DNA of 64,000 bases from an uncultured archaeon. GTDB taxonomy: Archaea; Asgardarchaeota; Thorarchaeia; Thorarchaeales; Thorarchaeaceae. Where the stretch lies: positions 1-64,000 of the forward strand of contig CAZSWP010000010.1 in NCBI GenBank assembly GCA_964610875.1, written 5' to 3'. A program made the position numbers and the translations under genes. Below the pieces are notes generated by a model, which was not told where the DNA came from, searched no databases, and was given only the letters and a program-made list of their open reading frames with translations. The number at the start of each line of letters is the position of its first letter. Within the stretch, counting starts at the first letter, position 1. Below are positions 8,307-8,990 of the stretch, piece by piece.

Positions 8307-8990
8307 ATGGAAACCGAACATATCGAGAAACGAATGCTCCTGATTGGAGAAGAAGCACCTGATTTTGAAGCCGTCACGACTGATGGTCCCATCAAGTTCA
8401 GTGAATGGGCAAAAGACAGCTGGGTAATATTGTTCTCGCATCCAGCCGATTTTACTCCGGTATGCACTCGATGATTGGATTCATTCCAATATCGGCATAA
8501 AACGGAGTTCATGGCCTTTGCGGATATCTATCCAGAATTGAAAGAAAAAGGCGTCAAGCTAATTGGACTCAGTATTGACAGCATCTACTCACATATTGCT
8601 TGGCTAAGAGCAATCAAAGAGAAGCTTGGAAAAGAGATACCATTCCCAATCATCGAAGACCTCAGTATGAATGTGGCTAAGAAATATGGCATGATTCATC
8701 CAGCACAGAGTGGTACTGCAGCCGTGAGAGCAGTCTTCTTCATTGATCCTGATTTCAAACTACGTGCATTGATTTACTATCCACTTAGTAACGGACGCAA
8801 CATGCAAGAGATTGTACGTGTCATTGATGCCTTCCAGACCTCCGATAAGCATAAGGTAGCAACTCCTGCAAATTGGACTCCTGGTGATGAAGTCATCGTT
8901 CCTCCTCCAAAGACACACGCAGACGCAGAGAAGCGACTGGCAGAAGGATATGACTGCGCGGATTGGTTCTTCTGCAAGAAGAAACTCTAG
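8307..8990 (+). CDS. Peroxiredoxin (Prx6 / archaeal TPx type), interrupted by an intron: join(8307..8467,8501..8990), 216 aa
   Basis: [12 protein letters not shown]|[32 protein letters not shown]-terminal CADWFFC; RBS GAGGAG at 8291-8296. Confidence 0.92.
8468..8500 (+). other. 33-nt BHB-type intron in peroxiredoxin mRNA
   Basis: Central helix ATGC(8462-65)/GCAT(8495-98); bulges AC|T and AA|A; intron stem CGAT-G-ATTGGA/TCCAAT-ATCG; exon stem ACTCC-G-GT/ACGGAGT; contains in-frame TGA. Confidence 0.88.

Follow-up and report, generated by a model that had tools for sequence, protein, structure and literature searches.

A probable BHB-type pre-mRNA intron next to the catalytic cysteine codon of a 1-Cys peroxiredoxin gene in a Thorarchaeota-like archaeon

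Described archaeal mRNA introns and the interrupted peroxiredoxin gene

An intron in the cbf5 pre-mRNA of Crenarchaeota was reportedly described by Watanabe in 2002. In the searchable papers, splicing of an archaeal pre-mRNA is confirmed only for this crenarchaeal gene, introns in other genes being predicted; the cbf5 introns form mostly unconventional BHBs, are common to two orders and have been confirmed by cDNA (PMC2738675). The only other archaeal mRNA case in the searchable papers is HVO_1309 of Haloferax volcanii, whose BHB intron in the 5' UTR is processed by EndA according to circRNA-seq and in vitro cleavage (PMC7714728). Introns in archaeal mRNAs are absent from a 2026 review devoted to non-canonical splicing, and a search of the accessible literature for mRNA introns of Asgard archaea or Thorarchaeota returned only work on tRNA.

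The gene considered here lies in the window, i.e. the whole stretch of 64,000 nucleotides that was analysed (contig C10 of its genome). It encodes a 1-Cys peroxiredoxin (prx), whose motif FTPVCT/TEF is interrupted at the slash, one codon past the catalytic (peroxidatic) Cys, by 33 nt with an in-frame stop codon (Table 1). A preceding sequence-only reading had claimed that removal of 8468-8500 yields the residues C-T-T-E and an intact enzyme of 216 amino acids, and this is confirmed: 8467 joined to 8501 gives GTA TGC ACA ACG GAG, encoding V C T T E within a 216-aa product. Exon 1 matches positions 1-41 of the Pfam AhpC-TSA profile (E 4.6e-9) and exon 2 positions 43-123 as well as the 1-cysPrx_C profile, so that the AhpC-TSA profile is contiguous across the cut. 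The junction is fixed at AC/A by the empty sites in intronless orthologues, and the reading frame is recovered at no other 3' cut than that behind 8500. Cuts made by the EndA rule, behind the second base of each bulge, result in a junction identical to that of the intronless orthologues; the 5' cut position given in Table 1 is derived from this rule together with the orthologue junction. The expectation that annotation pipelines would present the gene as split was likewise borne out, as gene callers report it in the per-run assemblies as two products of 75 and 159 aa.

Table 1. Positions of the features described in the text. Coordinates without a contig label refer to the window; cut sites and RNA helices are predicted.
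Feature	Position	Strand	Remarks
FUR-family regulator gene, divergent	7671..8168	-	Pfam FUR, E 2.3e-30
prx exon 1	8307..8467	+	ATG at 8307; 53 codons and the first two bases of a Thr codon; last part reads ...FTPVC-AC
Predicted 33-nt BHB-type intron	8468..8500	+	In-frame TGA at 8472-8474, two codons in
prx exon 2	8501..8990	+	Third base of the Thr codon plus 162 codons; stop at 8988-8990
Outer (exon) helix, 5' strand	8454..8461	+	ACUCC-G-GU, G8459 bulged
Central helix, 5' strand	8462..8465	+	AUGC, in exon 1; pair probabilities 0.97-0.98
5' bulge	8466..8468	+	ACU, unpaired in MFE and centroid folds; predicted cut after 8467
Intron hairpin	8469..8494	+	Inner helix of 4 + 6 bp, G8473 bulged, 5-nt loop UUCAU
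Central helix, 3' strand	8495..8498	+	GCAU, in the intron; 4 bp
3' bulge	8499..8501	+	AAA; predicted cut after 8500
Outer (exon) helix, 3' strand	8502..8508	+	ACGGAGU
Predicted hutU (urocanase) BHB-type intron, 30 nt	C13:53723-53752 = L347:1442-1471	+	Between ...NYGQ and MTAGG...
Actin insert, 30 nt with TAA	C13 ~33785-33814, in match 33731-34864	-	Between ...TFQK and MWVSRKEF...
~189-nt repeat copy in C39	C39:1547-1736 = L377:1312-1501	+	Splits an alpha/beta-hydrolase gene just before GxSxG
Other copies of the ~189-nt repeat	C27:56592, C9:15595, C3:143842, C2:111379		
tRNA-SeC(TCA) calls	C9 c40243-40349; C12 c21809-21899		ARAGORN; one of the two with a 31-nt intron

A FUR-family gene neighbours prx in divergent orientation here and at 11 of 14 orthologous prx loci. 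The intergenic region between the two genes contains a perfect 9-bp inverted repeat at 8234-8259, GCCCCTCTA-N8-TAGAGGGGC, a possible operator site of the FUR-family protein.

The predicted RNA fold at the insert reproduces base for base the coordinates, pairings, bulges and hairpin that had been read from the letters. The 63-nt region attains -22.8 kcal/mol (z = -5.47), and none of 200 shuffled sequences folded as well. Along the 5' strand the elements follow each other as outer helix, central helix, bulge and inner helix, along the 3' strand as inner helix, central helix, bulge and outer helix, an arrangement known from the position 37/38 introns of archaeal pre-tRNAs. A 4-bp helix lies between two 3-nt bulges, one on either strand, as defines the hBHBh' motif, and the outer helix comprises 7 bp (8454-8458 and 8460-8461 with 8502-8508). 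The attribute canonical, which the sequence-only reading had given to the motif, goes slightly too far, as the outer helix contains a 1-nt bulge and the minimum free energy (MFE) structure has a shifted register at the 3' bulge. In the MFE structure U8461 pairs with A8499, which lengthens the central helix to 5 bp and leaves a 1x3 internal loop, and the canonical 4-bp register that leads to the in-frame product is calculated to be 4.1 kcal/mol less stable (-18.7 versus -22.8 kcal/mol, nearest-neighbour model). The register of the 3' bulge is ambiguous because 8499-8502 reads AAAA, and owing to this A run a cut displaced by a single base would shift the frame.

Four of the 7 outer-helix pairs are set by the protein sequence T-P-V...T-E-F, and the remaining three depend on the synonymous choice of the codons Thr ACU, Thr ACG and Glu GAG. 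All three synonymous sites are in the pairing state in prx and in just 1 of 158 distinct intronless homologues, codon frequencies giving an expectation of about 3%. This covariation-like signal indicates exon synonymous sites tuned for the outer helix and supports the structure indirectly.

Splicing machinery and other interrupted genes

The host genome has a size of 3.75 Mb (124 contigs, 95% complete, 5.8% contamination), and the closest prx loci all originate from Thorarchaeota/Promethearchaeota MAGs. The assignment to an Asgard-like host made in the sequence-only reading is upheld by these relatives. The EndA profile PF01974 matches two open reading frames. The 191-aa alpha protein carries candidate Tyr/His/Lys catalytic residues, as read by eye from the ORF, and the 207-aa protein is beta-like, has no counterpart of the His and is probably structural. 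RtcB is represented by one PF01139 match with 588 bits. Asgard EndA is described as an (alpha-beta)2 type enzyme with an L1 loop (Kaneta et al., PMC5829648), and the predicted pair of an alpha and a beta-like protein fits this assembly. ARAGORN places introns, many of them 30-34 nt long, in 20 of the 35 predicted tRNA genes. With a BHB score defined as the sum of the central pairs, up to 4 outer pairs and up to 6 inner pairs, the clean tRNA introns of this genome reach 11-12 as their best.

A census for further mRNA introns was performed without reference to the motif. Open reading frames of G019, a relative from the same family of which 2.54 Mb were used (roughly four-fifths of a listed 3.1 Mb), were compared with the genome by tblastn. 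Well-aligned regions yielded 3442 insertions of 3 aa or more, which were retained if they contained a stop codon and had conserved flanks. Just two of the 3442 were left, namely the insert in prx and one of 30 nt in the urocanase gene hutU, with BHB scores of 11 and 12, respectively. None of 380 control insertions that lack a stop and have flanks of equal quality scores above 9, and the prx and hutU inserts both display the bulge pattern AC/N ... AA/A (slashes indicating cuts). Searches of the genome for structure gave no enrichment over a mirrored control: the strict scan found 53,014 BHB-like matches versus 53,653, with counts still equal after an ORF-fusion filter, a scan that allowed irregular helices found 7256 versus 7044, and a requirement for the motif in the MFE structure left 10 versus 15 and missed prx itself. 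Structure alone can thus not provide a census; moreover, the mirrored control has a flaw of its own, since a real BHB takes on the mirrored shape when read as its reverse complement.

The hutU insert offers the comparative evidence that a single-genome insert cannot give. It occupies one codon position in 8 genomes of 5 genera and is absent from many others, including congeners. In the alignment of the eight copies 95.3% of the cells are paired, compared with 33-44% when the partners are slid by 1-3 columns, and seven pairs exhibit double compensatory changes; the covariation value observed was reached in 0 of 500 shuffles. One of the covarying pairs links the third position of a Tyr codon in the exon (TAC/TAT) to an intron base (G/A), and one copy of the insert measures 29 nt, so that its retention would cause a frameshift. 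The predicted hutU intron is old enough to show covariation.

A further insert, again of 30 nt and with a stop codon, is located in the genome's only strong actin match (Table 1). It adopts a relaxed BHB with 3 of 4 central pairs. The same additional 30 nt with a stop codon are present in the actin genes of two other genera (G012, G014), and actin is uninterrupted, with 1104 nt, in 18 genomes of the same family or order. The hutU and actin inserts are, as judged from their predicted structures and their distribution, sister introns of that in prx and supply the evidence from covariation and conservation in its place.

The ends of several metagenome contigs coincide with these intron sites. L351 (from G020) and L366 (from G054), both covering hutU, begin with CAAATG, the longest suffix common to intron-bearing alleles (...ACAAATG, for example in G096 and G049) and intronless ones (...CAAATG). 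Such contig ends at the hutU intron site could reflect a presence/absence polymorphism that breaks the assembly graph. The prx contigs L278/L279, which begin 7 nt past the junction, fit this idea less well; they encode P0059, a 159-aa peroxiredoxin 86% identical to exon 2, which was considered as a second split gene and turned out to be merely cut by the contig end.

The census was complemented by a second search at the ends of the HSPs against the relative, directed at frame-shifting inserts and at inserts near gene ends. It returned one strong case, a 190-nt insert in a hydrolase gene on contig C39, and missed the actin intron. The C39 insert was rejected as an intron since it is a copy of a multi-copy repeat, present at least five times with 99-100% identity and in dozens of diverged or partial versions, which suggests a miniature mobile element; real gene disruptions accordingly look different in this genome. 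Apparently split gene pairs on C28 were rejected as well, since they consist of neighbouring hdrA/mvhD-like genes for which the relative has a fusion. The prx insert had also been considered as a miniature transposable element or repeat; the 33 nt and their 26-nt core occur as a single copy in the genome, blastn-short detecting apart from them only chance 13-15-mers, and the insert is thus not a repeat.

Competing accounts of the insert

We consider it likely, with good confidence, that 8468-8500 constitutes a genuine BHB pre-mRNA intron of the 1-Cys peroxiredoxin gene. According to established enzymology, a BHB is a substrate of archaeal EndA whatever RNA it lies in. We infer cleavage and ligation in vivo from the observed structure, the exact junction and the presence of the machinery genes, and the process may be envisaged as follows. 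The exon bases flanking the intron would pair with each other in the transcript to form the outer helix, and the last four bases of exon 1 before the 5' bulge would pair with the four intron bases before the 3' bulge. The resulting central helix would present two 3-nt bulges four base pairs apart to a heterotetrameric EndA, which is expected to cut after the second base of each bulge, i.e. after 8467 and after 8500. RtcB would then join the exons, GUAUGCAC being ligated to AACGGAG, and would probably also circularise the 33-nt intron. In this scheme the 216-aa enzyme would be encoded only by the spliced mRNA, and an unspliced message would stop two codons into the intron and give a fragment of 55 aa.

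The most serious competitor, which we nevertheless regard as unlikely, is a recent inactivating insertion: prx would be a young pseudogene whose insert is merely BHB-like or is cut without productive ligation. One argument for it is the uniqueness of the insert. The alignment of prx orthologues for presence or absence of the intron, as the sequence-only reading had proposed, found the intron absent from all of about 170 orthologous loci examined. An uninterrupted FTPVCTTEF is encoded by all 14 same-family orthologues (79-90% identity), by all 80 best loci among GTDB species representatives and by 78 of 80 metagenome loci, whereas two further metagenome loci lacked the motif altogether and make up the 80. 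Exon 2 is 79-93% identical to Thorarchaeota peroxiredoxins, and the closest protein on record (93% over exon 2) is intronless, too. The protein collection contained no intronless protein identical to the spliced product, its best full-length match being the 93% noted for exon 2. Since the insert is missing from every orthologue examined, it is a lineage-specific gain and a singleton. It looks like a fresh gain, and the T-P-V...T-E-F codons at its site are by themselves already half self-complementary.

The state of the gene bears on the same question. In an alignment of 82 sequences the spliced product has the common residue wherever the 81 orthologues agree without exception (the complete set shares 79 such columns), and dN amounts to about 0.08. 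A short-branch dN/dS estimate is ruled out by saturation, dS being above 2 or not computable against every relative including the closest sequence. By these measures the gene appears intact and without decay, although a very recent insertion would leave no visible decay. Two AhpC/TSA-family genes lie in tandem at C14:50586-51490 on the minus strand (134-136 bits), and weaker members of the family are found on contigs C27 and C43. The interrupted prx is consequently not the only thiol peroxidase of the genome, and its loss might be tolerated.

A pseudogene could thus appeal to the paralogues, to the restriction of the insert to one genome and to the fact that real gene disruptions do occur here, as exemplified by the 190-nt repeat in the hydrolase gene. 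It would, however, require that a chance insert reproduce the BHB geometry together with an exact in-frame excision, at a BHB score which none of the 380 control insertions reached, and in a gene whose exon synonymous sites are set for the outer helix as in only one of the 158 homologues. In addition, prx carries no other lesion and has lost no invariant residue, and its genome has two sister inserts that relatives share, with a covariation that indicates selection on structure. These observations agree poorly with a young pseudogene.

A more far-reaching version of the intron reading holds that splicing is conditional, so that EndA and RtcB would act as a post-transcriptional switch on peroxiredoxin output. 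This proposal, to which we give little credence at present, rests on the competition of the BHB with a more stable shifted fold, on the position at the catalytic Cys and on the Fur/PerR-type partner gene. If it were true, prx would provide an archaeal counterpart of the IRE1/RtcB-dependent splicing of HAC1/XBP1, and the lineage would be one whose protein genes are still acquiring introns of the tRNA type (prx, hutU, actin).

Translation of the insert, with the TGA decoded as selenocysteine or with a ribosomal hop as in gene 60 of phage T4, is highly improbable. A tRNA-SeC is indeed called in the genome by ARAGORN, and a stop codon and a hairpin directly behind the interruption are reminiscent of gene-60 bypassing. 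Read-through would, however, add 11 residues inside the invariant CTTEF turn of the active site, where 158 DNA and 81 protein homologues contain not a single insertion, and a ribosome that left the message at ACU (8466-68) and landed on ACG (8502-04), the nearest ACN codon downstream, would lose one Thr of the invariant motif. Neither process explains two bulges that are four base pairs apart. A selenoprotein was rejected in particular, as the TGA lies in an insert found in no homologue and the region 7600-9600 contains no match to a SECIS or any other Rfam element.

An assembly or binning artefact, i.e. 33 nt that are absent from the organism's DNA, might be suspected in a MAG of 124 contigs with 5.8% contamination and at a hairpin, a structure that can cause assembly errors, but is next to negligible, because two separate per-run Logan assemblies (SRR7048218 and SRR7048220) contain the identical insert in contigs that differ from the window by 0 mismatches in one and by 2 SNPs, both downstream of prx, in the other, which identifies the insert as real DNA and disposes of the artefact that the sequence-only reading had listed as a possible refutation.

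Relation to known splicing systems

If the genuine-intron reading is correct, one Asgard archaeon would contain at least three introns of this type, in an antioxidant enzyme, a catabolic enzyme and actin. The closest prokaryotic relatives of eukaryotes would then routinely splice mRNAs by protein enzymes, and gain and loss of introns in protein genes would become open to study in Asgard archaea. Standard annotation pipelines would be expected to mis-call such genes as split genes or pseudogenes, as happened with prx.

With the introns of archaeal tRNAs the predicted prx intron shares the hBHBh' motif and the size class, the tRNA introns of this genome clustering at 30-34 nt, and EndA and RtcB are presumed to act on both. 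In contrast to tRNA introns, it resides in an mRNA, so that splicing must precede translation, and the halves of its exon helix are built from codons and are therefore constrained by the protein sequence. HVO_1309 of Haloferax provides a BHB in an mRNA, as at prx, but its intron is placed in the untranslated leader and leaves the reading frame uninterrupted, whereas the prx intron breaks the frame.

A further parallel is given by HAC1/XBP1, which are spliced by IRE1 plus a tRNA ligase or RtcB. Both would be cases of protein-only, spliceosome-independent mRNA splicing, in which the exons are held by base-pairing and are joined by a tRNA ligase, and in which the unspliced message results in a different or truncated product. 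The IRE1 endonuclease and its twin stem-loop motif are, however, unrelated to EndA and the BHB, and splicing is stress-regulated in that system.

The closest likeness is to cbf5. Both genes have short BHB introns in a protein-coding reading frame beside the codon of a catalytic residue, the cbf5 intron inside the codon for the catalytic Asp and the prx intron one codon after the peroxidatic Cys. In both, the predicted cuts fall between the second and third bulge bases, the hosts possess a heteromeric EndA, and the introns are patchily distributed among relatives. The differences concern the host gene and the phylum (Asgard, Thorarchaeota-like), as well as the nature of the predicted prx intron, which is close to canonical and confined to a single genome. 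The predicted prx intron thus belongs to the cbf5 kind, with a new host gene and the Asgard phylum as novelties, and its special interest looks to lie in an apparently recent gain at a naturally self-complementary coding site beside a catalytic cysteine.
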